A stretch of DNA of 43,407 nucleotides from a virus (taxonomy: Duplodnaviria > Caudoviricetes): positions 1 to 43,407 of IMG/VR virus record IMGVR_UViG_3300011437_000007; one strand, written 5' to 3'. The notes under the pieces were generated by a model. That model worked only from the letters and a program-made list of their open reading frames with translations, was not told the DNA's origin and made no database searches. Positions 2,060 through 33,906 of the stretch are shown piece by piece; the first letter of the stretch is position 1, and each line of letters starts with the position of its first letter. A program made the translations under genes and the position numbers.

Positions 2060-2618
2060 GCGTGAGCGTATTCAGGTCGGTCGGCTGTTCGGTCGATGGA
2101 CGGTTGTTGCAAAACTCCCGTCGCGGAGCTGGCCGAGCGGAAGCACCTACCCCGTCTGGCTCTGTCGCTGCTCGTGTGGGACGGAACGCAGCGTCAGCGC
2201 GCCACATCTCGCCACGGGGCACAGCCAGTCGTGCGGGTGTTATTACGCAGAACATATTCGCACTGGCGCAAACCTGCGCCACGGGCACGGGCGTCATGGA
2301 AGGCAATCGCCGGAATATCGCGCCTGGTGTGGAGCACTGTCCCGCTGTCACACCGCCACGACGAGCAGCTATCCGCACTACGGCGGGCGTGGTATCGGCG
2401 TGTGCGATCGCTGGCGACGCAGTTTTGACGCCTTCCTTGCCGACATGGGGCCGAAGCCGTCTGTTGGCCACTCGTTGGACCGCATCGACAATGACGGCCA
2501 CTACGAACCGGCGAATTGCCGCTGGGCGACAAAGAGTCAGCAGGCGCGCAATCGTCGGCGTCCTACGCATTCCGCCTCACACTCTCAGCGCCAAGTCGCG
2601 ACGCTGACGTTCGACTAA
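2058..2618 (+). CDS. HNH homing endonuclease, antisense, between terL and portal
   Basis: [54 protein letters not shown] motifs. Confidence 0.9.
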
Positions 2619-4137
2619 CACTCTGACGCAGCGCACCCATCGTGCCTGGGGCGAACGTGTGTGGTGCCTTCGCAGACACAGCCGGACTCGGCCGGCTCAT
2701 AAACTGATACCGCGTCTCGTCGATCGCGTGATCGTCGCCATTGGTATCCACATCGTCTGGATTCTTCTTGTCGCTCCGCGCGTTCGGAATCGAGCGAACC
2801 GTGTACTTCGCGTCCGGGTGACACATAAACCACGGTCGGCCGTCCGGAGCGTCCCGTAAGAAGGCTTGGAACCGCTGCCAGCCGTTAAACCGGTCGTTGT
2901 CGGCTTTGATGCACGGGACACCGTAGTGCCTGAGGGTTTCCATGATCGACTGACCGAGAAACTGGCCGTCGCGATGCGTCGAGCCAGTCTTGTTATCAAT
3001 AGCCGGGTCTGCCGCGGTATAGGCCACCGTCGTAATGCCTAGTTCGGCGTCGATCTTCAAGATACCCTTCGCCACGTCAGGCTCATCGAGGCCGCGGAAC
3101 TTCCAGTCGAACCGCTTATAGACGCGCCCGTCTCCGAGGGTGGCATACCAGCCCACGCACCCCGGTTGATTCCGGCCCCAGTCGAGGCTGCGTGTCCACC
3201 GGACCGTCGCTGGATCGAAGTCCAAGACGGCGACGTGGTGGGACTCCTGCCACTGCGAGAAAAATTGACCGGAGAAAATTCTCCAATCGCCATGACGCAG
3301 CTGCTCATACCGCCACTTGGGTAACAGCGCCAGCGTCGTGAGGTAGTCCGGGTCAATGTACGGGTTGTCGTCCAGCGTCGCCGGGATGTACGTAAAGTTC
3401 GCCGGGTCATACACCGCCTGCAACGCCGGATACCGCTCGAAATCCGGCGCATGATCCACAAACACCTGCAACAGCGCCTGACTCGTCGGACCGCCCGGAT
3501 TGGAGGGAATCACAAATTTCGCCCCGCCGGCCGCCCGCACCAATGGCTTATTCGACCGCGCGCGCGTGGACAGTTCCAGCAACGGCACCTCGCCCAGCTC
3601 GCCGATGGGATACTGCGACCCCTCATCCGCCGCAATCGCGTCATACTCCGTCGACAGGTAGTTCTGCACCGCGTCTGCATCCTCCATGTGCCCGCACTGA
3701 ATCAACGACCCGTTCGGAAACCGCAACACCCCCTCCGACTTCACCAGCGTCGCCCCCAGCAGCCGCGCCTCCGTCTCCATCCGCCGAATGTGCGTCTGCA
3801 ATAACTGCTTGTAGTTCTCCCTCAGCAACAACGCCTCAAACCCCGGAATCGTCAAACACTGCCGATACAACCACCACCGCACCCCCGTACTCTTCCCAGG
3901 CCCCGCCGCCCCCCCCCACAAAATGTTCCGCGCCGGGCACTCCCACATCACCACCTGCTTCGGCACCGGCACAAATAAACACTGCGCCTCTTTCCCCTTC
4001 CGCGTCACCGTCAACGCCTGCGCCACCTGCCGACTCCAGCACGCCCCCGTCGGACACAGCCAACACGTCAGCCCCCCCACCTCCGACTCCACTAGCCCCG
4101 CCTGACACCAGCAACACCGCGCCGTCGCATGCGTCAC
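2563..4137 (-). CDS. terL: Terminase large subunit
   Basis: Walker [10 protein letters not shown], Walker B AIAADE, coupling motif SNPGG, RNase H-like nuclease LDWG and [10 protein letters not shown]. Confidence 0.95.
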
Positions 4138-4904
4138 CCCGGCACTCCCTGACCAGACGCCGCACGCGCACGCCCCCTTTTTTTCTTGCGGGGCCCGGCC
4201 ACAGACCCGCCTTTTACACCAGCGGCACTGTCCTGACCACCAGCGGGGGGGGCGGTGGGGTGGGGCCCCCTTGGGGATTCGACCGCAGGAATCGGCCGAT
4301 CCAGATCAGCGCCAGGCTCGAGCTGGCACGGTGCCCCGTTAGTTAACGGAACGTCGCTTATAAGACTCGAAGGTAGCGCGAATGTCTCTGTTTCCAACGA
4401 CTTAGCTGTGTCTATATTGACGACGGGCGGGGCGAAAGTCGGGGGCGAAAGTACGCCCACTTTCACGTCGCCATGCGCCACCCCGATCTGGACGACCACT
4501 TGGGGGACGCTGACATCCTCTTTCCGTAGTGCAAATTGCTCAGGATCGGTGCGCTCGAGAATCCACGCATTACTTGCCCAGTAGCGCGGGTCATCTGCTG
4601 CACGCTCAATACGTTGCAGCCGTCGCAGTTTGCCTTCTGACCGGGCACGTTTTAGGGCGTTCACAAAGACTGCGTGCACGGAGTCGGGGTGCTGTGTAGC
4701 CTGTTCAATCCATCGTCCGAGGGTAATGGGGTTGAGTCCAGCGGCGAGGCAGCTATCGGTATTGTTGAGTCCTTTGCCCACGGCTTCGAGGAGGATCGCG
4801 ATGGTGTCGGGGTCGGCGAGATGGCTGTTGAGGGCGTGTGTGGTGGGGACTTCGCGGTGGTAGCGATCGGCGATGGCTTGGGCTTGTTGAGCGAGGCTGG
4901 GCAT
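4134..4904 (-). CDS. terS: Terminase small subunit with a long disordered C-terminal extension
   Basis: HTH-like 'SCLAAGLNPITLGRW' and 'WASNAWILER' segment; overlaps the terL start. ATG at 4904 preferred over the 5036 start. Confidence 0.75.
   Translation of the reverse strand: MPSLAQQAQAIADRYHREVPTTHALNSHLADPDTIAILLEAVGKGLNNTDSCLAAGLNPITLGRWIEQATQHPDSVHAVFVNALKRARSEGKLRRLQRIERAADDPRYWASNAWILERTDPEQFALRKEDVSVPQVVVQIGVAHGDVKVGVLSPPTFAPPVVNIDTAKSLETETFALPSSLISDVPLTNGAPCQLEPGADLDRPIPAVESPRGPHPTAPPAGGQDSAAGVKGGSVAGPRKKKRGRARAASGQGVPG
4341..4368 (-). promoter_or_regulatory. dif-like (XerC/XerD) recombination site candidate inside terS
   Basis: Minus strand GAGTCTTATAA-GCGACG-TTCCGTTAACT has the 11-6-11 layout. 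Identity to the E. coli dif arms (GGTGCGCATAA / TTATGTTAAAT) is 6/11 and 8/11. Confidence 0.45.
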
Positions 4905-5139
4905 CGTCTGGTGTGGGGGGGGCGATGGCGTGGCCGTGCTGCGCCCGGTCCACGGTCTGAATCGCCTAAGGAGTACTGTGGGCGGGAATGGTCGGAAACG
5001 CGAGGGAAACGTGAAAAAAGGGGCACAGAAGTCCACAGGAGTCCACGTGGGGGGATTGACACGGGATCTGTCCGATAATGGGATTGCTGTATTAATTCGT
5101 TAAGACTTCGGGCACTGTCTCAGTTTGCCCGACGGCGTT

Positions 5140-5331
5140 TCAATGCTTCACTTTGAAGATGTCCGGTCCCAGTCCGAGATTTGTGCAGACTGAGCGAATG
5201 ACATCAAGCGGCACCCAGTCATGCGGCGCTGAGCCGGGCATGAAGATCACAGCCACGATCGGTTCGGAGCCGTCAGACCCACGCACGATCGCGTAAGTGG
5301 TGCCTTCGAACTCTGTCGTGAGCACGGACAT
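5140..5331 (-). CDS. HicA-like small protein (putative toxin); true start may lie upstream
   Basis: C-terminus 'VPLDVIRSVCTNLGL' resembles the HicA C-terminal helix. The in-frame upstream stretch 'KLTFSQFQEILTN' resembles the HicA N-terminal helix. Adjacent to a HicB-like gene. Confidence 0.4.
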   Translation of the reverse strand: MSVLTTEFEGTTYAIVRGSDGSEPIVAVIFMPGSAPHDWVPLDVIRSVCTNLGLGPDIFKVKH

Positions 5332-5338
5332 CCGACAT

Positions 5339-5785
5339 TCACAGTTTGTGAGGATTTCTTGAAACTGACTGAACGTCAGTTTGGAGCGCCAGTCCGGACC
5401 ACGAGTGGGCGGTCTGTACCGGGTCGTTGGTCACCGCCGAGATCATGTGCCCCGTATTCGACAACATAGGCTCTGCGGTCATCGTTTGGCTGACGGCTAT
5501 CTTTTGCCACACTTCCCAGAAGGCATCCGGCGCTGGTTGGAGGGATGCAAACGGTTCTTGTTGATACCGTCCGGCTATTTCTATGTAGCCTACAACCGTT
5601 CGTTCGAATGCAAGCTTGGCTTGATCGATGTTCCGGCCGTGCGCAGCTATGTCATGTTCCAACGCTTGAGCGACCCAAGTGTCCGGGTCGTCTAGTTCAC
5701 GGAAGAAAAGAACACGCAGCAGGATCGGTTTAGCAGACAATGCAATCAGGTTATTGCCCAACGCGGCTGAATGGTGCAAGGTCAA
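5339..5785 (-). CDS. HicB-like antitoxin-fold protein
   Basis: 'WVAQALEHDIAAHGRNIDQAKLAF' matches the HicB partial RNase H fold pattern. Confidence 0.6.
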   Translation of the reverse strand: MTLHHSAALGNNLIALSAKPILLRVLFFRELDDPDTWVAQALEHDIAAHGRNIDQAKLAFERTVVGYIEIAGRYQQEPFASLQPAPDAFWEVWQKIAVSQTMTAEPMLSNTGHMISAVTNDPVQTAHSWSGLALQTDVQSVSRNPHKL

Positions 5786-5822
5786 TCTTTTATGGGGACG
5801 ATTCCTGTGCCACAGGGGTCAC

Positions 5823-6101
5823 TTAGCGGTTCCACGGCGCTTGCCTCGGAAAGAAATCAGAGATTTAGCAGCCGAGCGCATTCGCCAGCAGGACAAGGGT
5901 GCCGAGCGTGACGTTTCCGCCGCGCTCGATCTTGTTTATTCCCTGCTGACTCATATGGGCACGCTCGGCGAGTTGCCGTCTTGTCATGCCCGCATGCCGC
6001 TCGTCGTGAAATCCGGCGCAGGCCGTGCCGAGGTCAACCAGCAGTGTTGTGACGGTGTTGATCGAGGTGCCCGTCATGCGCGTAATCGCGCGCAGGCGGT
6101 T
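5823..6101 (-). pseudogene. Chimera of an IS1-like transposase N-terminal fragment and an XRE HTH with a premature TAA
   Basis: 'LRAITRMTGTSINTVTTLLVDLGTACAGFHDE' resembles the HTH region of IS1-like DDE transposases. It runs into 'MTRRQLAERAHMSQQGINKIERG..LANALGC*ISDFF'. Confidence 0.65.
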
Positions 6102-6417
6102 AGGTGAGTCGCGGGTCAGGCTGGCAAATCTTCTGAGGGACCGCCAGCCCTTCCCCCTGTGCGAGGAAAGGAGCCGAGTGTGATCAAATTAGGCCAAGGC
6201 GCGTAGGGCGCGCGTGACCCAAGGGGAGGGATGGTATATGCCCTCCCCAGCCCTTTTCCTGTTAATGATAGTACCACTAGTAGTTATCCACTTCAATAGT
6301 GGATTTCTTTTAGAAAGACGCCCATGAACGAACACTACATCGCGGTCCTTGCAGACCTTTGATTTTATCGAAGTCGAGGCCGTACGTCAAAATCAAAGGT
6401 CCTATGGCAGCGACATC

Positions 6418-6445
6418 ATCGGTTCGAATCCGATCCCGGTCTCCA
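6418..6445 (+). other. Isolated tRNA 3' end (T-arm, acceptor 3' strand, CCA)
   Basis: ATCGG-TTCGAAT-CCGAT is a perfect T-arm, followed by CCCGGTC-T-CCA. No pairing 5' half is found upstream. Confidence 0.6.
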
Positions 6446-6446
6446 G

Positions 6447-6683
6447 CTACTGTTCCCGCTTCTTCCAGCGGGCGCGAGCAGCGCGCGAGGCACTTGCTTG
6501 TCGTTCTGCGTCACTAAGTTTATCGGCGCGCGCCCGTCCCCCCTTCAACCCGCCCTTGCGCCCACGCTCCATGGCACTCTGATCCTTGTTTGAATCAGGA
6601 TCTGAATCGACTGCTTCTCCAACCGACAAGCCAACAATCAGCTTTGCGAGCTGATTCGGATCGCGCGGGCGCTTTCGTTTCAT
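6447..6683 (-). CDS. Small basic KGG-motif protein of the type found beside IS1-like transposases
   Basis: MKRKRPRDPNQLAKLIV...GRKGGLKGGRARADKLS..R..A..AARARW. Candidate promoter TTGACG-N18-CATACT with its -35 at the inner edge of the right TIR. Confidence 0.8.
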   Translation of the reverse strand: MKRKRPRDPNQLAKLIVGLSVGEAVDSDPDSNKDQSAMERGRKGGLKGGRARADKLSDAERQASASRAARARWKKREQ

Positions 6684-6715
6684 AACCGCAGTATGCGGCG
6701 ACGCCAATCCGCCCG

Positions 6716-6949
6716 TCAAACTGAGACAGTGCCAGACTTCGGGGATGGGGCGAGGGCGGTGAGCCAATGGTGGATGGCGATGCGGCGGTTGATGCGGATG
6801 AGGCGGCCATCGCGGGCGACGCCGTGGAGGCGGCCGGCGGCGATGCGACGGCGGACGGTTTTAGGGTGGACGTGGAGGAGGAGGGCGAGTTGCGCGACGG
6901 TCAGGAAGTCTTGGGCGCGGGCGACGGTGAGGGCATCCGGGATGGGCAT
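6716..6949 (-). CDS. Excisionase-like (HTH_17/MerR-type) DNA-binding protein
   Basis: [35 protein letters not shown]. The last 5 residues are encoded by the IS TIR. Confidence 0.8.
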
Positions 6950-6954
6950 CGGGG

Positions 6955-7221
6955 TTAGCTCAGCTGGGTGGCGTAGGCGGTGTTGAGGTCGTCTGGGCTG
7001 GTCTCGAGCGCGCGCACGGTGACCACATCGCGCGTCAGGAGCGTATTGAGATCATCGGTCGGCGTCGTCACGGACAGGGCGTCCAGATGGCGGACGAAGA
7101 GGGTCGTGAGATCGAGCCCGCCCGCTGGGACGCCAGCCCCCGCAGCGGCCCACGTGCCGACCGCCCAGACGTCGTCCGCCCAGGAGGTGCCGGCGGCCCA
7201 ACTACTGCCAATCGCCGCCAT
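6955..7221 (-). CDS. Hypothetical protein, probably virion-associated
   Basis: 88-aa ORF with a GGAGG RBS, at the end of the tailspike cluster. Confidence 0.55.
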
Positions 7222-7264
7222 GGTTACGTCATCCCTCCGAAGACCTCACGCACGCCGGTGTGCA

Positions 7265-7969
7265 TCAGGGGCCCCACGGCGTGGCGGCGCCGTCGCCGAC
7301 AATCGCCACGTCATTGACCCGTTGAATGTTGGCGTCCACCACGTTGGCGACCGTGAACGTGAGACTGTCCGTCTTGGCCTTGATGGCCGCGACTTCCGTG
7401 TCGAGGAAATTGTCGATCGTGTCGGCCTTGCCATCGATCGTGGTGGCGAGCGTGCCCAGCGCGTCGATCTTCGCGTCCAGCGTGGTGCCGGTATCCGTCA
7501 GGATGGCGTTGATCTGCGTCGTCAACTGCGTGTCGAGATCCAGCCCGCCGGCATCCGAGATCGGGAGGCCACCTGGGGCATCGGCCGCCGCATTCGGCAG
7601 AGCCGTGCCCGCCAACCCGCGAATCGCGTCGAGGAGACGCACCCGTAAGGACTCGGTAAAGGCCGTCGCCACTTTCACCGTGAGGATGACTTCATCCACG
7701 CCGGTGGCAAAGGCCGCATCGGGCCAGTCCACGCGATACAGGCCCGGCTGATCGGTCGCGTCGATCTCGATCGCCGTGTTATCGCTATGCGCCGAGTCCG
7801 TCGCGGCCAGCGCCGTGGCATCGACTTTCGCCACCGGGGCCACGCCCGATCGCACGTACTGCAGATCGATGCCGGTAATGGTCAACCCCGTCGCGTCCGT
7901 CCCATCCGCCGCCAGTCGGAGATGGAAATAGGTGGTGACGTTCGTGGCGCCCTTCGTGACCAGCATCAT
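7265..7969 (-). CDS. Tail fibre/spike adaptor-like structural protein
   Basis: Ala/Thr/Asp-rich with an Ig-like N-terminus ('PGLYRVDWPDAAF'). Start overlaps the upstream stop (TAATG). Confidence 0.6.
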   Translation of the reverse strand: MMLVTKGATNVTTYFHLRLAADGTDATGLTITGIDLQYVRSGVAPVAKVDATALAATDSAHSDNTAIEIDATDQPGLYRVDWPDAAFATGVDEVILTVKVATAFTESLRVRLLDAIRGLAGTALPNAAADAPGGLPISDAGGLDLDTQLTTQINAILTDTGTTLDAKIDALGTLATTIDGKADTIDNFLDTEVAAIKAKTDSLTFTVANVVDANIQRVNDVAIVGDGAATPWGP

Positions 7970-9378
7970 TAGAAAATCCCCCCACTCATCCCCGCACTCC
8001 GTGGTGCGCCGCCGCCACCAACCGGATCGGCATGTTGCGCCGCGCCGATGTCGAGATAGGTCGCGGTCAGTCCGTCCAGAAAGGTCGCGGGATAGGACAC
8101 CGCACGGACCGCCGCGCCAGCACCAGCCGTATTGTTCAGCGAAAAGTCTGCCGCTCCGGCATTCGTAAACGGAGAGCCCGTGAGGGTCAGAAAGCCCACG
8201 AGTAAACTTGCCGGGTAGGCGGTGGTGTTGACATTGCCGGAGGTATTGTTGTAACCGGCACAATTCACGAGCACCGGATTGAACCCCGCCGCTGAATCGC
8301 TCCCGAATCCGTATCCGCCATTGCCTTCAGCAAGACCATTCAACCAATAGGACGCCGCACCAGTTCCGCTCCGTAATCCGTCTCGACCATTCCCATAACT
8401 GGTACAATTAATAAATATCCCCCTCACGCTGATATAGAAACCGTCCGACGATGCCCCTGAATTGTTGTACGCCAGACACCGAATGGCTAACATATTCGAG
8501 CCACCAAATCCGGTGACGCTATTGGCGTCGGCTTGGCATGCATAGAGAACCACGTTCGAATCAATCTTCCATGCTGGCTGCGTGACGCATCCAGTGACGC
8601 GGGTTCTTGTCACTCCTATCATTCCCGAGCTCGCTATAGCTATGCCACTGTTCGTGCAGTTACGAGCGAGGCACGTATCTATCTGCCCGTATACGGCTCC
8701 GGATATATCCATACCACGCGAACTCGTCTCGCCGTGTCCGTCCACTTCAATATTCACAAGACGCACATACGTGCCGACGCTGAGATCGATGATTTTCGCT
8801 GTGGAGACACCGGTATTCAGTTGCAACACCGGAGCGGTACCCATATCACCGCGCGTGGTCTGATACCCCTCCACGCGCACAAATATTCCGTTGTCGCCAC
8901 ACGTGGGCTTGAAACACCCCGCCGCAATATTCGGCGTGGCCGATGTCATCACGTGGGTGCCGGCTTTAATGTAATAGGTGCTCCCTGCAACACCGATCGC
9001 GCCTGCAGCTCCTGGACTTGCTAGTGCTCCACCAATATTCATGGTGATCCCGGTGCCCGCTGCCACGGTGCGATCCACGGTGATGCTGGACGTGCTGGCG
9101 CGGGCCGTACACTGATACCAGTCCGCCGCTAACGTTCCTGTGCCGCCCGCCATGTAAAAGATGTTGCCGGGCATCGTCGTCCCGAAGTTGGCCGTGGCCG
9201 AGGTAATCGTGGTGGAGCCATCCGCGACGGCATCGGTCGTGGAAATGTCCGCGCCGGCGGTGTTCTTGGCGTCCTGCTGGGAGTAGTCCGTACCAGCAGC
9301 GCCGGTAACGAACCCGCCGCCATTGGTGTCGTTGCCCGCTGTTCGTATTTCAAAGACGCTATTAGCTGATAGAGCCAT
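7969..9378 (-). CDS. Tailspike, right-handed parallel beta-helix
   Basis: Repeating 'NC..Y.N...G' beta-helix rungs; Gly/Thr-rich. Confidence 0.75.
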   Translation of the reverse strand: MALSANSVFEIRTAGNDTNGGGFVTGAAGTDYSQQDAKNTAGADISTTDAVADGSTTITSATANFGTTMPGNIFYMAGGTGTLAADWYQCTARASTSSITVDRTVAAGTGITMNIGGALASPGAAGAIGVAGSTYYIKAGTHVMTSATPNIAAGCFKPTCGDNGIFVRVEGYQTTRGDMGTAPVLQLNTGVSTAKIIDLSVGTYVRLVNIEVDGHGETSSRGMDISGAVYGQIDTCLARNCTNSGIAIASSGMIGVTRTRVTGCVTQPAWKIDSNVVLYACQADANSVTGFGGSNMLAIRCLAYNNSGASSDGFYISVRGIFINCTSYGNGRDGLRSGTGAASYWLNGLAEGNGGYGFGSDSAAGFNPVLVNCAGYNNTSGNVNTTAYPASLLVGFLTLTGSPFTNAGAADFSLNNTAGAGAAVRAVSYPATFLDGLTATYLDIGAAQHADPVGGGGAPRSAGMSGGIF

Positions 9379-9381
9379 GTG

Positions 9382-11169
9382 CTATGGCACCTCCGGAAGG
9401 TACGTTGTCTCAATCTCGACCACCGCATTCGGCGCGCCACCATTGCTATTCATCCAAAAATAGAACCCCTTCGTGAGATAGGCCGTCAGGGCTGCGGCGC
9501 CGGCGCCGATGCTGAACCATTTGTTTGTCGGCACAGTAATCCACGCCGTTCCTGTGGCCGGAACCCAGTAGTTGTGGCCGAAGGTGTCCGAGATATTCCG
9601 CAAGTCGCCATCAGTCGTCACGCGGATGCGTGCGGCGGTGTAGAGGCCAGCCGGAACGGTCACGAGTTCCACCGACGGCCCGCTCGTGATCGTTTCCGTC
9701 CAGTTATTCACCGTCGCCGGGCCATAGGTCACACCATCCAAGGTCACGGTGCCTAACAAACCGTGCTCCATGTTGGAGCCCCAGTTGAACCAGTCAGTCA
9801 GCCCTCCGGGGAACGCCAACGTCCCGTCAAAGTCTCCGTAATACGTGATGTAGATGGGCAGTGATCCCCCAATCGGCGTGACTTGGAGACTCGCGTTTGT
9901 AATCAGGGGCACGTCAGCGCCAACCGAAAAGAACCCTAGGACGGTGGGAGAACTCACATAGGTGCGGGCTGCAGTAAAGGCCACGTTATAGTCCAGCCCA
10001 TCAACCCAGATATTTGTTGACCGGACTTCTGTGTTGAACGCTGCGATGTCCGTTCCGGTGATCGACACATCCCGAAAGGTCAGACCATCGCCTCCCCACG
10101 CGGTGAACGCACACGCTTCGGCGGTTGAACTGTTCCAAATTTTGCTCGATCCCGCGCCTGTGAACGTCGCACCATCCACCAGTACATTGAGCGAACGCCA
10201 GATATGAATCGTGTTGCCGTGAGGGTTGGCGATGGACACGTTGTTGATGGTGATATCCGTCGCCGCAACCACTGACACGTCCCACATGCCATTTGGCATC
10301 AGCAAGCCATCGCTGATTGGCTCCAGCTCCAGTGTGAGGTCGTTGAGTATGACATCATGAACCATCCCGCCGACAAACCGTTCCAGCCCGTGATCAAGTC
10401 CGTAGCCCTTGGAATAATTCGCGTAACTCGGCCATGTCCCCCACTCACCGATCTTCCACTGCAAGCCGGACTCGACTTCAGCCGTTAAGGCGGCTAATGA
10501 CCCGTAGTTCGTGATGTCCTGCCCTAAGCCAGCCGTAAATGTAATCACGCCCGTGCCGATATCTATAGATTGCACAGTCGCCGGGATGAAGGCTTCGGGT
10601 TCGACCGGATCGCTGGGCGTCACTCCGGCCCAGATCAGTACCACTTCCCCCGCCTGCATGGTGACGATTTCATCGGGGTCCATCGTCAGCGTGGTCGTCC
10701 CCGACGCAATCGTTCCGGTCACATGCGAGATGGACCGAGACGCCACGCCATCTGGTGTCGAGGCGGGAAGAAAGACCGGTGAGGTGACAGGGACGCTGGC
10801 GATCTGAACAGGGTAAAAGCCCGAATTGGCGCCTTCAGCGGGATCGACGAGTAGCGTGCAGCCCGCGAAATTGATGGTCACATTGGACCGATTCAAGACC
10901 AGCGTTCGTGAGCTGTTTGCAACGTTGGTTTTCTGCAACCGATAGTCGCCGGCAGGCATCGTAATCGTGCCAACGGCTGGGTTCGCCCAATCGTCATACA
11001 CCGAATTGGGTAAGGGTGTCCCAGCGGCCTGGTCGGCCGCCCAGGCTTGGAATTGCACGAGGGCCGCTCGCTGCGCCGCGACGCGCGCTTCCCACTGCGC
11101 AAACGGCTCAATGATCGGCTCGAGCGCGGGATACGCCGCGATGAACGCTGTTTTTAAGTAATCGTCCAC
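9382..11169 (-). CDS. Tailspike/depolymerase, pectin-lyase-like beta-helix
   Basis: 'GTITMPAGDYRL..LNRSNVTINF' entry motif and 'DITINNVSI..NVLVDGATF..TFRDVSI' rungs. Confidence 0.7.
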   Translation of the reverse strand: MDDYLKTAFIAAYPALEPIIEPFAQWEARVAAQRAALVQFQAWAADQAAGTPLPNSVYDDWANPAVGTITMPAGDYRLQKTNVANSSRTLVLNRSNVTINFAGCTLLVDPAEGANSGFYPVQIASVPVTSPVFLPASTPDGVASRSISHVTGTIASGTTTLTMDPDEIVTMQAGEVVLIWAGVTPSDPVEPEAFIPATVQSIDIGTGVITFTAGLGQDITNYGSLAALTAEVESGLQWKIGEWGTWPSYANYSKGYGLDHGLERFVGGMVHDVILNDLTLELEPISDGLLMPNGMWDVSVVAATDITINNVSIANPHGNTIHIWRSLNVLVDGATFTGAGSSKIWNSSTAEACAFTAWGGDGLTFRDVSITGTDIAAFNTEVRSTNIWVDGLDYNVAFTAARTYVSSPTVLGFFSVGADVPLITNASLQVTPIGGSLPIYITYYGDFDGTLAFPGGLTDWFNWGSNMEHGLLGTVTLDGVTYGPATVNNWTETITSGPSVELVTVPAGLYTAARIRVTTDGDLRNISDTFGHNYWVPATGTAWITVPTNKWFSIGAGAAALTAYLTKGFYFWMNSNGGAPNAVVEIETTYLPEVP

Positions 11170-13394: not shown

Positions 13395-13557
13395 CGATCG
13401 CTCCCTCCTCTGGAAACGTCTCCACAATCTCCGAATCCACATGTTCGATCTCTGCCTTCTTCGCGTGCTCGAGCGCATGCCGCACGTAGCTGTACGCGTC
13501 ACTCGGCGTCTCGGCATAGACCCGCACGGTGGTCAGAATTTCATAGAGTGGACTCAC
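13375..13557 (-). CDS. Hypothetical protein
   Basis: 60-aa ORF coupled to the resolvase stop. Confidence 0.5.
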   Translation of the reverse strand: MSPLYEILTTVRVYAETPSDAYSYVRHALEHAKKAEIEHVDSEIVETFPEEGAIGASTAL

Positions 13558-14030
13558 CGATCGCTCCCTTCCTGATCGCCCCGTGTGATCTGAATTTCGG
13601 TCCAGTACTGCCCGTCGTTAGAAATCGTTTGCACTGGCGTCGACAACTCGATCCACTTCCGCGAGTCGTTCTTGATGTAGCCCAACCGCTTCAACGCATC
13701 GAGCAACGGCTTGACGCAGAATCGCAAGTTGTCATCGTCGCGGATGAAATTACGCCCGGAAGGGACTTCGCGGGTCACCGCCACCCGCACCCGCCCCGCC
13801 TCGTAGCCGGTCATGCGCTTCGGGCCGCAGGCCGCGCCGAGTGCTGCTGCCCAGTTCAGAGTTTCGCCAGACCGGCAGTAGACATCCAGCGTGGCCGCGC
13901 CGATCTCTTTCTCCCAGTCCTGCGAGATCCGATGCTTGATCCTCCAATGCCTACCCTGCCAACGATTAGGGCTGACTAGTTCGCGCTGGACACGCAGCGT
14001 CACGTTCGCGGGATCAATCACGCCGCCCAT
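13554..14030 (-). CDS. RusA-like Holliday junction resolvase
   Basis: SPN N-terminal motif and RDDDNL..KPLLDAL..IKND catalytic pattern. Confidence 0.8.
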   Translation of the reverse strand: MGGVIDPANVTLRVQRELVSPNRWQGRHWRIKHRISQDWEKEIGAATLDVYCRSGETLNWAAALGAACGPKRMTGYEAGRVRVAVTREVPSGRNFIRDDDNLRFCVKPLLDALKRLGYIKNDSRKWIELSTPVQTISNDGQYWTEIQITRGDQEGSDR

Positions 14031-15398: not shown

Positions 15399-15920
15399 CT
15401 AGCTGCGATATAGCCGCCGCATGCGTTCCCGCTGACAGGCACGACAGACGCGCGCACCGCTACGCTTTACGTGTAGGTTGGTTCCAGAATAGTCGTGGCC
15501 GGATGGGCACTGTGTGATCGCGCGATGGTAGTCATCAATCCGAAGCGTGTGCAGACTACGCGCGACATTTTCCCCGCGCGTGACTGCTTCAAGATGTGAT
15601 GGGTTGACGCACGAACGATGCGCGCAGGCTGATCCGCCGCCGCACTCAGCGTCTCCGTTGTGACATGTATGATCCAAAACCATGCCAGATGGCACGCGGC
15701 CTCGAAAGAGTTCGTAGGCCACGATATGGGCGGCCATGCTCCGCCGTGATGCCCGGAACGAACCGTAACCTTGTGTTCGTCCACCTGTCCAGCGCCAGCA
15801 CGCATCTAGGGCACCGTCCTCAATCTTCACCAAGAACCGCTCGATGTCGCCGCGAGTCAGCGTGACGCCACACCACAGCGTTACGCTGTCTAACTTCGCT
15901 AACCGTTCCGCCATCACCAT
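15399..15920 (-). CDS. HNH endonuclease
   Basis: CWRWTG..GYG..AHIVAYE..LDHTC..CVNPSHLEAVT..EN; C-terminal CPSGH..CRAC Zn module. Confidence 0.9.
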   Translation of the reverse strand: MVMAERLAKLDSVTLWCGVTLTRGDIERFLVKIEDGALDACWRWTGGRTQGYGSFRASRRSMAAHIVAYELFRGRVPSGMVLDHTCHNGDAECGGGSACAHRSCVNPSHLEAVTRGENVARSLHTLRIDDYHRAITQCPSGHDYSGTNLHVKRSGARVCRACQRERMRRLYRS

Positions 15921-17633: not shown

Positions 17634-18224
17634 CTACTTGATGCGTTCGTACGTGTCATCGTGCCGTGGGAGATCGCCCTTCCAGCGATGCCCGTGCACA
17701 ATCGAGAAGATCATGGACGTGCTAACACCAAACTCAGTTGCTAAGTGGTTCTGTTTAGCGCCTTTAGACCAACGTGCACGGATAGTAATCACGTTTTCCG
17801 AGGTGAGCTTCGACAATGGATGTCGTTCACCAGAGATACCGCGCCGCTTAGTAACCATGTCCTGGGTGTTGTCTTTTGGGGTGCCGAGAAACAGATGCTC
17901 CGGATTTACGCACCGCCTGACATCGCATTGGTGACAAATACACATGCCTTTGGGAACTGGGCCATGTTGTGTCTCCCAGATATAGCGATGCGCGCCGATG
18001 CTGTTGCCATTCAACCAGAACGAGCCGTACCCGGCCCTTTGGGTTCCGGTCCACATCCAGCAACTACCAGTCTTTTCCACCTGAGCCCAGAATCTATCCT
18101 GCGCGGTACGCCTTGATGCTTGCCTGCACTCTGGAGAGCAATGCCGCGTCTTACCCTCTCGCACCTTAGAGGGACTGCGCTTAAATGGATTCCCACAGTT
18201 AAGGCAGTGATACATAACTGGCAT
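17634..18224 (-). CDS. HNH endonuclease with N-terminal Zn finger and C-terminal HTH
   Basis: CLNC..CSPEC; RFWAQVEK..CWMW..AHR..CHQCDVRRCVNPEHLFLGTPKDNTQD; SKLT..V..IR. Confidence 0.92.
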   Translation of the reverse strand: MPVMYHCLNCGNPFKRSPSKVREGKTRHCSPECRQASRRTAQDRFWAQVEKTGSCWMWTGTQRAGYGSFWLNGNSIGAHRYIWETQHGPVPKGMCICHQCDVRRCVNPEHLFLGTPKDNTQDMVTKRRGISGERHPLSKLTSENVITIRARWSKGAKQNHLATEFGVSTSMIFSIVHGHRWKGDLPRHDDTYERIK

Positions 18225-22086: not shown

Positions 22087-22433
22087 GTACGCCTCTTTTC
22101 CTCAATCGTGACCGACCGCTTGACGTCGAAGTACTCACCGCAGACTTCCAACGCCAACAGGGGCAACAGTTCCCGCCAGACCGCTGGAGGCCAGTCCGCC
22201 ACCATCTCGTGAAACCACAACTTGTGATCGGTGAGGCCGCTGATCTTCTTGGAGGTTTGCGCCTTGTCGTCACCCAAGGCTTTCGACTGAATCCCGCTGC
22301 GGGCAATGGCGAGCTTGACGAGATTCGCGGCTGTGACAATCGCGTGGTCAGTGAGCTTCGCCTTTGCCGGTTGGAGTTTGCCAACCGTGTTGAGACGACT
22401 TAGGGCGGTTGACCGCGCTATAGTGCTGCTCAT
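22083..22433 (-). CDS. CII-position regulatory protein (putative)
   Basis: Follows cro (after the HNH insert); HTH-like 'SKALGDDKAQTSKKISG'. Confidence 0.5.
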   Translation of the reverse strand: MSSTIARSTALSRLNTVGKLQPAKAKLTDHAIVTAANLVKLAIARSGIQSKALGDDKAQTSKKISGLTDHKLWFHEMVADWPPAVWRELLPLLALEVCGEYFDVKRSVTIEEKRRT

Positions 22434-22924
22434 GCCACCCGGTTCCTCGTTCTGGCGTGCCGGCGACGATGCGCAGCAGACAGTGCCGCGCGATGGTCAT
22501 CCGAGAACTTGCGTCCCTTCTGTGTGTGCGCGTGAGGCGAGCGCCGCCCCTTTTTATCCATGTCCCGGATGTTGTCGAGTTGAGTGCCGAGGAAGAGATG
22601 AGCCGGATTTACACAGGGCGGATTGTCGCAACGATGCAGGACCGACAGCCCCTGCGGAATCGGCCCGCGAGCGATCTCCCATGCGCCGCGATGCGCGAGC
22701 TTCGTTTGCTGCGCGGCCGTATCCCAGTAGACGCCGTAGCCGCGATTCTTGGCGAGCGCTCCAGACCACAGCCAACACGACGCAGGCGAAAGCTCGGAAT
22801 TGGTGTTTCGTCGGAAGAACTCGGACGCGGATTCCGTCTGTTCTATGCTAATTTCATACGGCGACCGTGGCTGTAAGTCATTGTTTTGTAAGGAGATATA
22901 ACATTCCTTATTAGACTCAGTCAT
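22430..22924 (-). CDS. HNH endonuclease with NUMOD3-like tail
   Basis: CWLWSG..GYG..AHRGAW..VLHRCDNPPCVNPAHLFLGTQLDNIRD; KGRKFSDDHRAALSAA. Confidence 0.88.
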   Translation of the reverse strand: MTESNKECYISLQNNDLQPRSPYEISIEQTESASEFFRRNTNSELSPASCWLWSGALAKNRGYGVYWDTAAQQTKLAHRGAWEIARGPIPQGLSVLHRCDNPPCVNPAHLFLGTQLDNIRDMDKKGRRSPHAHTQKGRKFSDDHRAALSAAHRRRHARTRNRVA

Positions 22925-23156
22925 GCACATCACCTGCAAGTGGCTGTGCCGGAGAGGCATTGTGGACGAGCGACTCAATCGGGATGTTCGCTAAGTCGGC
23001 GATGCGGAGCGCGAGATCGAGGGGGGGATTCTGTATCCCATTGGCAATGCGGGAGATATAAGACTGAGAGACTCCAATCCGTCGCGCAAAGGCGGTCTGG
23101 CTCTCGCCGCTTTTCTCCAGATACTGTGCCAAATTGGGATATATTCGGCGTTTCAT
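22917..23156 (-). CDS. Cro-like XRE HTH regulator
   Basis: SQTAFARRIGVSQSYISRIANG..PPLDLALRIA; first gene of the early operon, divergent from the repressor. Confidence 0.88.
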   Translation of the reverse strand: MKRRIYPNLAQYLEKSGESQTAFARRIGVSQSYISRIANGIQNPPLDLALRIADLANIPIESLVHNASPAQPLAGDVHD

Positions 23157-23319: not shown

Positions 23320-23673
23320 ATGCCGAAGGCGTCTGAGCGCATCGTGGCGCGCGTGCGTCGCTGCATGGATGACCGGCGGATGTCCCAAACCAAGCTCGCG
23401 GGGTTGATGGGCAAGACGCAATCCTGGTTATCGCGGCGACTGAGCGGGGCTCAAAGTTTTCGGCTGCGCGACCTCGATCGACTGGCCGACATTTTCGAAA
23501 TCACGATCCCGGAATTGTTCTTTGATGAGTATGGACAGTGGGATCGAAGATCGAAAACTGATCGGCGAAAGTCCGAACGGCGTCAGTCACAACGCACGAT
23601 TTTCGATGCGAAGGTTGAACTCACCTCCACCATCGCGCGACTGTCCTTTCCTACTACGCGCGAACATGAATAA
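23320..23673 (+). CDS. CI-like repressor: XRE HTH with (D/E)RR-repeat C-terminus
   Basis: MSQTKLAGLMGKTQSWLSRRLSG; divergent from cro; no S24 peptidase domain. Confidence 0.8.
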   Translation: MPKASERIVARVRRCMDDRRMSQTKLAGLMGKTQSWLSRRLSGAQSFRLRDLDRLADIFEITIPELFFDEYGQWDRRSKTDRRKSERRQSQRTIFDAKVELTSTIARLSFPTTREHE

Positions 23674-24912: not shown

Positions 24913-25341
24913 ATGTTGCCTGATCGGTTCTGGGCGAAAGTCGAGAAGACTGACACGTGCTGGATCTGGCGTGGAGCAAGGAGCGCACGCGGGTACGGTC
25001 AACTTCGCGTGAATGGCCGAGCGGAGTACTCGCACCGCTTGATCTACGAATCTGAAGTTGGCCCAATCGGTCCAGGTCAATTCGTCCTTCACCATTGCGA
25101 CAACCCGCCGTGTTGTCGTCCAGATCATTTGTTCGCCGGATCGCCAGCAATGAACGTGGCGGACATGGTAAGAAAGAATCGTCATCAGACGTGTTGTCGC
25201 CTGACGCCTGATGACGTTCTCCAGATCCGAGCGATGTACCGCCCCGGCATCATCAAACAGCAAGAGTTGGCCGACCTGTTCGGGGTAGCCCAAACAACCA
25301 TCTGTTACGCGATCCGTTACGGTTGGAAGCATGTCCCTTAG
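24913..25341 (+). CDS. HNH endonuclease, antisense
   Basis: RFWAKVEK..CWIW..GYG..SHR..VLHHCDNPPCCRPDHL..N..D; C-terminal HTH. Confidence 0.9.
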   Translation: MLPDRFWAKVEKTDTCWIWRGARSARGYGQLRVNGRAEYSHRLIYESEVGPIGPGQFVLHHCDNPPCCRPDHLFAGSPAMNVADMVRKNRHQTCCRLTPDDVLQIRAMYRPGIIKQQELADLFGVAQTTICYAIRYGWKHVP

Positions 25342-30521: not shown

Positions 30522-31391
30522 TTAGAATCCCAATTGCGACAGGATCCACGCGCGGACCTGTTGCTGTTGCCGGGCCTGTTCGGCGTGTCGCGCCGCGATC
30601 GCCGCCTTATTGCGGGTGTCGATCTGCGCCGTCTCGTCGGGCGTCGGCGTGGGTTGTGACCGCCCGAGGCCCATCACGCCGATGTCGGTGCGTGTGGGCT
30701 CCACCGTCTGGGCGAAGTCCGTCGCGCCCGTCATGACCGAGAGCGGCGACAGAATGCGGCCAACCGCCCCAGCCGCCTTGCCCGCCGCCGTGCGCGCCAC
30801 GCCCGCTTTTGCGGCGACCTTCGGCGCTTCTGGGCCGATGGCGACTTTGCCGTCAGGCCCGAGGATGCGGACGACTTTCTGCCCCATCGACTCGGCGTAG
30901 TGGTCCAGCGCCTTTGTTGGGGTGCCGGTGCCGATCAGATCCTTCGTGCCCAGCATCAAGCCTGGCGTCTCTTTGGCGTAGTTGATGACGCCGAGCGCGC
31001 GGCCCGCGTTCTTCGCCACCGCGGGGGCTTCCCCCGCCAGGCGGCCGGCCGTCTCGCGGATGACGCTCTGCGCGGGTGTCACACCACGAATGGAGGCGCC
31101 GACCACGGCCCCCGGCACGCCCCCGATCCCCGCGCCGATGCCGCCGGCGACCGTGGAGATCCCGGCCCCGATGGTCTTCTGTGTGCCGGCGGGATGCTTC
31201 GCCGCGAAGCGCGCGAGGCCCCGTCCAGCGGCCGGGACGGCCCGGAGCGCCCCGATCGTCGCGCTGGCGCCCCCGGATCCGTGCGCCTGCGGTGGGGCCT
31301 CTGGTGCGGCCTCTGGTGCCACGAAGGCGGCAAAGGGGTCGTCCTGCACCACAAACGCCGCAAAGGGGTCGTTTTGGGGCTGTGGAGGCAT
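30522..31391 (-). CDS. Putative DNA ejection/internal virion protein
   Basis: Repeated N-terminal 'DPFAAFV'; Gly/Ala-rich; position after the tail genes. Confidence 0.6.
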   Translation of the reverse strand: MPPQPQNDPFAAFVVQDDPFAAFVAPEAAPEAPPQAHGSGGASATIGALRAVPAAGRGLARFAAKHPAGTQKTIGAGISTVAGGIGAGIGGVPGAVVGASIRGVTPAQSVIRETAGRLAGEAPAVAKNAGRALGVINYAKETPGLMLGTKDLIGTGTPTKALDHYAESMGQKVVRILGPDGKVAIGPEAPKVAAKAGVARTAAGKAAGAVGRILSPLSVMTGATDFAQTVEPTRTDIGVMGLGRSQPTPTPDETAQIDTRNKAAIAARHAEQARQQQQVRAWILSQLGF

Positions 31392-33426: not shown

Positions 33427-33906
33427 ATGCTCGCCTATTCATCGCCCACTCTCGAAACACGGTTGTGGTCCTACGCCGACAAAACCGATACGTGCTGGCT
33501 CTGGAAGAAAGGCCGTAATCGCGGCGGCTATCCACTCGTACACGCCGGAGGCGTGGGTAGCGAACTCGCGCATCGCATTGCGTGGACGTTGACACACGGC
33601 CCGATTCCAAGCGGCTTGAAGGTCTGTCACACATGCGACGTGCGCCACTGCATCAATCCGGCGCATCTGTTTCTTGGCACACAGCGCGACAACATGCGCG
33701 ACTGCAAGCAGAAAGGTCGCTGGCCGGTTCGCCCACGCGGCGGAGACAATCACAAGGCTAAAGTGTCCGAGGCTGACGTGCGAGCGATCCGATGCGTCTA
33801 TGCTGCGAAACTGAAGACACAGGCTGAGATCGCTGGCGACTACGGCGTCACGCAAGCCGTCGTATCGAAAATTGTTCGGCGCGATACGTGGAAGCATCTC
33901 GTCTAG
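33427..33906 (+). CDS. HNH endonuclease, antisense
   Basis: CWLW..GGY..AHRIAW..VCHTCDVRHCINPAHLFLGTQRDNMRD; C-terminal HTH. Confidence 0.92.
   Translation: MLAYSSPTLETRLWSYADKTDTCWLWKKGRNRGGYPLVHAGGVGSELAHRIAWTLTHGPIPSGLKVCHTCDVRHCINPAHLFLGTQRDNMRDCKQKGRWPVRPRGGDNHKAKVSEADVRAIRCVYAAKLKTQAEIAGDYGVTQAVVSKIVRRDTWKHLV

Follow-up and report, generated by a model that had tools for sequence, protein, structure and literature searches.

Host XerC and XerD are used by a variety of elements that recombine at sequences resembling the chromosomal dif site. In the available text of the papers found, Xer hijacking concerns filamentous, tailless and single-stranded phages, the phage-like LME-1 and islands, and it always serves integration. 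IMEX elements, among them VGJ-phi, TLC-phi, CTX-phi, GGI, LME-1 and the enterogokushoviruses, are described in the accessible parts of four reports as having no recombinase of their own and a 28/29-bp mimic of dif (PMC4246890, PMC5357621, PMC9765430, PMC7062461). The attP of VGJ is given there as 29 bp (PMC4246890, PMC5357621), and enterobacterial gokushoviruses integrate although their spacers and XerD arms vary (PMC7062461). Dif-type double jelly-roll prophages and PM2, according to the portion of the source available, carry a full or a one-armed 17-bp attP beside the repressor (PMC12715192). On plasmids, the cer site has an 8-bp centre and about 180 bp of accessory DNA, as stated in the excerpt available (PMC5357621). 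The literature covered, with few subscription papers and some articles present in part, contained no report of a dif tied to terS, nor of a tailed-phage IMEX apart from LME-1 (PMC9765430); a preprint match concerned an inovirus.

The locus described here belongs to a 43-kb viral record, which was analysed as a whole (43,407 nucleotides, hereafter the window). The record is a complete virus classed as having direct terminal repeats, and its terminal repeat is at least 100 and less than 127 nt long. From its major head protein, SU10 adaptor and tail collar genes, the phage looks podovirus-like. The sequencing run that matches it best carries the label freshwater sediment metagenome. The original prediction had placed a dif-like site within terS and had read it as a possible attP for host XerCD. 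The features of this region, with some from outside it, are as follows.

2563-4137, minus strand: terminase large subunit (terL); best named matches about 30% identical, in Arthrobacter cluster AR phages
4134-4904, minus strand: terminase small subunit (terS), 256 aa, ATG at 4904, phrog_4102
4341-4368, minus strand: dif-like core, made of XerC arm GAGTCTTATAA, 6-nt spacer GCGACG and XerD arm TTCCGTTAACT
4392-4404, plus strand: IHF-like box, 36 nt before the core, with 7 of 9 matches to the presumed IHF consensus
4431-4437, minus strand: TTTCGCC repeat, offset -69 from the core
4444-4450, minus strand: TTTCGCC repeat, offset -82 from the core
5111-6733, no strand given: IS1-family remnant; its inverted ends, of 17 bp, are 5111-5127 and 6717-6733, and the target duplication, of 8 bp, is at 5103-5110 and 6734-6741
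6716-6949, minus strand: HTH_17 (excisionase-family) DNA-binding gene, directly upstream of terS if the IS is discounted, as in relatives
13554-14030, minus strand: RusA-like Holliday junction resolvase, phrog_34

The IHF-like boxes of the window (4392-4404, and 22874-22885 discussed below) were called against what we take to be the IHF consensus. The predicted lack of a recombinase and of ParA is borne out. Tyrosine recombinases were sought in the window with Pfam models and a profile of the clade's own divergent integrases, serine recombinases with Pfam models, and neither gave a match; 101 + 82 ORFs had no Pfam recombinase match, ParA was not found in the window, and no recombinase was found in G001 and G003. 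The gene and Pfam searches of the window ORFs also returned no match to the ERF, RecT and Sak families. Genes for FtsK-gamma and for XafT/DUF3653 (PF12375) were each found in 0 of the 5 records searched, which leaves the activation of XerD unaccounted for. The Xis-like gene of the prediction does exist (HTH_17, 6716-6949), and it is weak evidence of excision because such a gene also lies directly before terS in L001, L002, L005 and L006. The IS1-family remnant is inserted at its 3' end, interrupting the last codons; the 17-bp inverted ends are perfect and enclose two cargo ORFs, the gene of a small basic protein, and a fusion of a transposase N-terminus with an HTH_3 domain, which matches IS1 family transposases at 61%. 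Large tail-spike-like and virion-like genes occupy 6955-11169, between the replication genes and terS and apart from the main tail module. Five HNH endonuclease genes are scattered over the window (15399-15920, 17634-18224, 22430-22978, 24913-25341 and 33427-33906), two of them on the opposite strand.

The 28-mer reads on the minus strand of 4341-4368 exactly as predicted, in the 11-6-11 layout. It covers codons 180-188 of the 256-aa terS, in a dispensable tail: the conserved core of terS ends before the site, and many homologues stop at 157-190 aa. Scoring used a weight matrix of four published chromosomal dif sites, taken from the supplement of PMC3025954; the matrix ignores the spacer. The terS 28-mer scores 21.7 bits, the best value on both strands of the window, which is attained in none of 300 first-order Markov shuffles, whose maxima average 10.3 (sd 2.4). 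The second XerC-arm-like 11-mer of the prediction, CTGTCCGATAA, is indeed present at 5068-5078 on the plus strand, and its significance did not survive. As a full site it scores only 9.7 bits, one third of shuffles contain such a core, and of 34 clade loci only that of the window's own record has a lone arm upstream of terS. Being unconserved and likely due to chance, it was rejected as a functional site. A CTX-like hairpin around the terS site was rejected as well (z 0.31).

The terS clade was set by the extent of profile match, blind to the dif-like site, and holds 38 dereplicated loci, with three short loci set aside. The site is conserved in terS homologues: scoring at least 15 bits, it lies 350-900 nt from the terS start in 25 of the 38 loci, the window included. 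Distant terS loci have one in 4 of 78 cases. No scorable site is present in 13 of the 38, among them the near-complete G015 and G335; missing from about one third of the clade, it is dispensable. When loci were instead chosen by terL (37 whose terL identity reaches 33% and which extend at least 1 kb upstream), a dif-like site was found upstream of terL in 20, vs none in 37 matched control stretches. Among the 25 loci, the site is within terS in 10, across its stop codon in 3 and past it in 12. The constraint thus acts on the DNA, and the recurring tail peptides of terS are by-products of a DNA element. In a protein-blind pattern scan, the high-GC matches L374, L389 and L403 were seen by eye to have a dif-like site near the terS end, in terS-terL-portal modules. 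The terminase and portal types of these three differ from those of this phage. An extra XerD-arm-like sequence is found 35-100 nt from the main site in G027 (24902), G024 (4710), L021 (near 880) and G023 (37449), and is inverted in G027, G024 and L021.

That the match might be accidental was a proviso of the original prediction. The site does lie in a coding tail, and its XerD arm has two mismatches to the closest published dif seen. However, the shuffles and the conservation across the clade, whatever the frame or strand, make a chance match or a by-product of protein coding barely credible.

The dif-like core is the centre of a cassette of about 110 bp, composed of two TTTCGCY repeats, an IHF-like box and the dif-like sequence, which inverts as a whole. 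Its anatomy was read from a pool of 43 sites, comprising only those of at least 15 bits. The clade consensus of the arms is G.GTCYGATAA on the XerC side and TTATGTTAACC on the XerD side; the ATAA and TT..G bases flanking the spacer are almost invariant, and only two spacings occur. The spacers themselves are free, with 41 distinct forms among the 43 sites (31 of 6 nt and 12 of 7 nt) and 27 distinct first triplets. Even close relatives differ, as do L005 (CGGGGG) and L008 (CAGCGG), or L118 (GGCAGG) and L128 (GGCCGG). TTTCGCY is found no more than 110 nt upstream in 26 of the 43 sites (background 3.8%); the offsets of the window, -82 and -69, are frequent among them. An IHF-like box, with at least 7 of 9 matches to the consensus we assume, stands upstream in 10 of 23 sites (background 8%), at -36 in seven of them. 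In 35 sites the cassette is on the same strand and in 8 of the 43 on the opposite one, and the inverted copies L114 and L189 keep the repeat offsets. One 29-mer is shared by L006 and L007, whose terL genes are 99% identical, and it is oriented oppositely in the two.

As far as cer (ColE1) and psi (pSC101) are described in the available text, the likeness consists in a dif-like core for host XerC and XerD on the element's own DNA, accessory sequence alongside, and a spacer unlike that of chromosomal dif. Here too, core and conserved accessory sequence are held at fixed spacing. In contrast to cer and psi, the cassette is on a tailed phage, tied to terS and often in coding sequence, and its accessory part, which spans about 80 bp, contains TTTCGCY repeats and an IHF-like box. 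Phage P1 circularises by Cre-loxP near pac, and its loxP falls in the duplicated end. The terS site resembles lox in lying near the presumed packaging start, as a place where site-specific recombination could close infecting DNA; P1 encodes its recombinase, whereas this phage, in which none was found, would borrow XerC/D. On these comparisons, the presumed role of the terS cassette would be most like that of cer/psi or P1 lox, and we do not file it as an IMEX attP.

Several observations favour recombination of the phage with itself: the arms are conserved and the spacer free, the repeats and the IHF-like box keep fixed offsets, both orientations occur, and some genomes with the site also have an integrase. 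We consider, at slightly better than an even chance, that host XerCD recombines two identical copies of the cassette on phage DNA near the packaging start, and does not insert the phage at host dif. The cassette would bind host XerC/XerD, and XerCD acting on two copies would close the infecting linear genome or resolve multimers. Since two copies of one phage share their spacer, XerCD could recombine them whatever the spacer and orientation. Headful packaging may start in or near terS; with a start at or before the repeats, the site would fall in the duplicated end, i.e., the terminal redundancy, and inversion of the whole cassette would keep the order of packaging start and site. A point against this scheme is that only the first particle of a headful series would have the packaging-start region at both ends. 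Exchange might be completed by FtsK, by replication or by the RusA-like protein, which could finish a single Xer strand exchange. Headful packaging itself is suggested by the terL identity of about 30% to cluster AR phages, one of which, from Arthrobacter, is listed as circularly permuted in the part of the source available (PMC5513430). The pac site of SPP1 overlaps its terS gene; this phage packages in the direction of transcription and depends on terminal redundancy to become circular again (PMC6316719). Sf6 and P22 are covered in a separate source (PMC5630979).

The original reading of the terS site as attP, in which host XerCD inserts the phage at chromosomal dif by XerC-first exchange and splits terS from terL, fits poorly and now seems improbable to us. 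It has points in its favour: no recombinase was found in the window, G001 and G003, the phage has a temperate-type cI/cro pair, and both arms are present with a 6-7-bp centre, as in IMEX elements. In addition, the terS core would survive the cut, the 7-nt spacers recall the VGJ attP, and the gokushoviruses, as described in the text available, integrate with variable spacers, so that a free spacer is compatible with integration. However, the site does not stand in place of an integrase. PF00589 is matched in 7 of 32 related records, and the site upstream of terL coexists with a tyrosine integrase in G027 (24.0 bits), G024 (25.4 bits) and G026 (18.8 bits), with weaker sites in the PF00589-matching G020 (14.7 bits) and G029 (12.9 bits). 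G337 has an integrase and no site, while G015, G335 and G021 have neither; the two thus vary independently. The first three spacer bases, for which homology to host dif would be needed, take 27 forms among the 43 sites. For this genome, the dif table of PMC3025954, in the part available, has no instance of ATAAGCGACG, and 301 Planctomycetota genomes gave 81 dif-like matches in which GCGACG was not seen by eye; the arms are compatible with those of Acidobacteriota, Planctomycetota, Myxococcota and other groups. Moreover, terL follows the site in the 14 of the 25 site-bearing terS loci that could be followed, the other 11 giving no terL match in their remaining 181-1113 nt, left unannotated.

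The parallel drawn with the TLC attP fails because the degenerate XerD arm is a variant of this genome and is not conserved in the clade, where the consensus is TTATGTTAACC. A TLC-type site would combine a conserved degenerate arm with XafT, and PF12375 is found in 0 of 5 records. Thus the terS site differs from those of IMEX elements in its occurrence with an integrase, in having no conserved spacer or degenerate XerD arm, and in that neither XafT nor an integrated copy was found. A prophage search of 185,579 species genomes with terL patterns gave two loci, of which L025 is a 16-kb contig starting in the terS region, with no junction. No host-phage junction or integrated copy at the terS site was found in genomes, metagenome contigs and two runs, material with few long or host contigs. 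In the contigs of the two runs, one of which may be the source of the record, neither site of the window showed a joint or loose end among the matches listed; contigs drop rare forms.

Other explanations keep the cassette on phage DNA. XerC/D and IHF might bind without recombination, as a terminase aid at the packaging origin, an FtsK stop or a roadblock to transcription between terS and terL. Repeats with an IHF-like box by terS resemble packaging-origin architecture, a free spacer and mixed 6/7-nt spacing fit, and no Xer activator is encoded; but the near-invariant ATAA and TT..G flanks and the restriction to two spacings are what a cleavable site would need, and a roadblock would not need free orientation and a place past the stop codon. 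We regard binding alone as rather unlikely, while deserving attention. A plasmid prophage, in which the terS site is only a cer-like dimer-resolution site of lysogens, would account for the repressor, the lack of an integrase and, from what is available of PMC5357621, accessory sequences beside the core as in cer and psi. However, no ParA was found, integrase-bearing relatives keep the site, and this model gives no tie to terS, making it very unlikely. Self-recombination of the cassette thus stays our preferred reading of the terS site.

A better-placed candidate for attP exists past cro. The cro/cI switch of the prediction is present (minus and plus strand, respectively), and the second site lies at its edge.

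22874-22885, minus strand: IHF-like box just past the second site, called on the presumed consensus; a similar site-plus-box sequence is found in G023
22891-22918, minus strand: second dif-like site and candidate attP, GAGTCTAATAA GGAATG TTATATCTCCT, 15.0 bits, beginning from the cro stop codon
22917-23156, minus strand: cro-like XRE regulator, from the gene search of the window
23320-23673, plus strand: cI-like repressor, from the gene search; no integrase follows cI, unlike in G024, G369 and G370

This second Xer-type site just past cro is new here. It is the next-best dif match in the window, and it is not significant genome-wide (17 of 150 shuffles reach its score). In a 100-nt window of local composition, chosen after the relatives were seen, it is significant (44 of 20,000). 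G001 and G003 have sites of 20.2 and 22.0 bits at the same place. A scan with the cI of G001/G003 gave 20 loci, 19 of them unique, which represent one lineage and not independent events. In all 19, an XerD-arm-like 11-mer opening with TT(A/C)TG lies just past cro and antisense to it; the motif was taken as the best match in 190 nt, and 14 of the 19 fit a strict pattern by eye. Across 14 whole records from this lineage there are 13 strict matches, 10 of which follow cro. The six bases by the XerD arm tend to T(A/G)(T/C)A(T/C)G, as in TGTATG, TACACG and TGGATG, spacer forms that some dif-like matches of Planctomycetota genomes also show. The XerC arm of these post-cro sites is degenerate. A tyrosine integrase was found in 0 of the 18 new records of the lineage and a small resolvase in 1 of 18. 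Conversely, 8 integrase-bearing records had no strict match near their lysogeny genes, and where cro was located, in 3, the motif was in 0 of 3. The post-cro sites L308-L327 lie about 400-450 nt before cI, and an HNH gene or remnant often comes after them. In G367 (L330), within this integrase-less lineage, a small serine recombinase gene lies just beyond the post-cro site, at 30662-31099.

The window differs from this lineage in having another cI and a mirror pattern, with a good XerC arm, a weak XerD arm and sense orientation. When the window's own cI lineage was used for the scan, none of 42 candidates was confirmed; the post-cro site of the window is thus without a direct homologue among the sequences compared. 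The G023 site, which resembles it, was not counted as post-cro, no cro having been found beside it. The cI-like repressors of the window (23320-23673), A4 and A6 end in repeated ERR/DRR motifs and not in a peptidase domain, so that induction may not be of the RecA-type self-cleavage kind. G356 alone among the 12 cI-lineage records examined carries both sites, and most phages of the lineage have unrelated packaging genes, which indicates that the terS and post-cro sites travel with different modules. Within one genome the two sites are unlikely to recombine with each other, since their spacers differ in the window, G001, G003 and G356.

With its dif mimic in the lysogeny module of integrase-less phages and absent from those with an integrase, within one cI lineage, the post-cro site would be most like an IMEX attP, but the integrated form that defines an IMEX is lacking. 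The IMEX idea may therefore still hold for this genome, at a site (22891-22918) that the original prediction did not give. Double jelly-roll prophages and PM2, as described in the available text, similarly pair one good arm and a spacer with the lysogeny module as an alternative to an integrase; those are tailless, of the 10-kb class and with XafT/P15, whereas the phages here are tailed, of 39-49 kb and with cI/cro, and no junction was found. Judged from sequence, the post-cro site is likelier than the terS site to be attP; that the window's own copy acts as one is possible but still somewhat doubtful. A promoter or operator role may also explain it. No integrated copy ending at the post-cro site was found by cI-profile genome searches, the dif pattern scan or the contigs of the two runs; the cI profile had no match in 401 Gemmatimonadota genomes or in 401 from Planctomycetota, searches that had no positive control and whose phyla may not include the host's.

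If the terS reading is true, tailed phages that link a dif cassette to their packaging genes would put XerCD to a second use, in the lytic cycle, and finding a dif-like motif in a phage genome is then not enough to call an attachment site. The site past cro would offer a lysogeny route to repressor-bearing phages without integrase or ParA, and it predicts exact prophage ends. As a tentative scheme, tailed phages may carry two exchangeable XerCD modules: a genome-closing cassette at the packaging origin, and a one-armed post-cro attP replacing the integrase, where integration would separate cro, together with its promoter, from cII and the replication genes and so act as the lysogeny switch.

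Further dif-like sites came to light. The dif pattern scan of viral contigs gave 104 loci (L371-L474), none adjoining cro or cI of this clade. In 64 of the 104 the spacer is TGTATA, most within one identical 28-mer and in records of about 45% GC; these loci represent a large phage group with a chromosome-type dif. Finally, the Planctomycetota chromosome G066:C1 has dif-like sites at 713248 and 773115 (L476 and L479), 60 kb apart, of which the first has a different spacer and adjoins primase-like and methylase-like genes.
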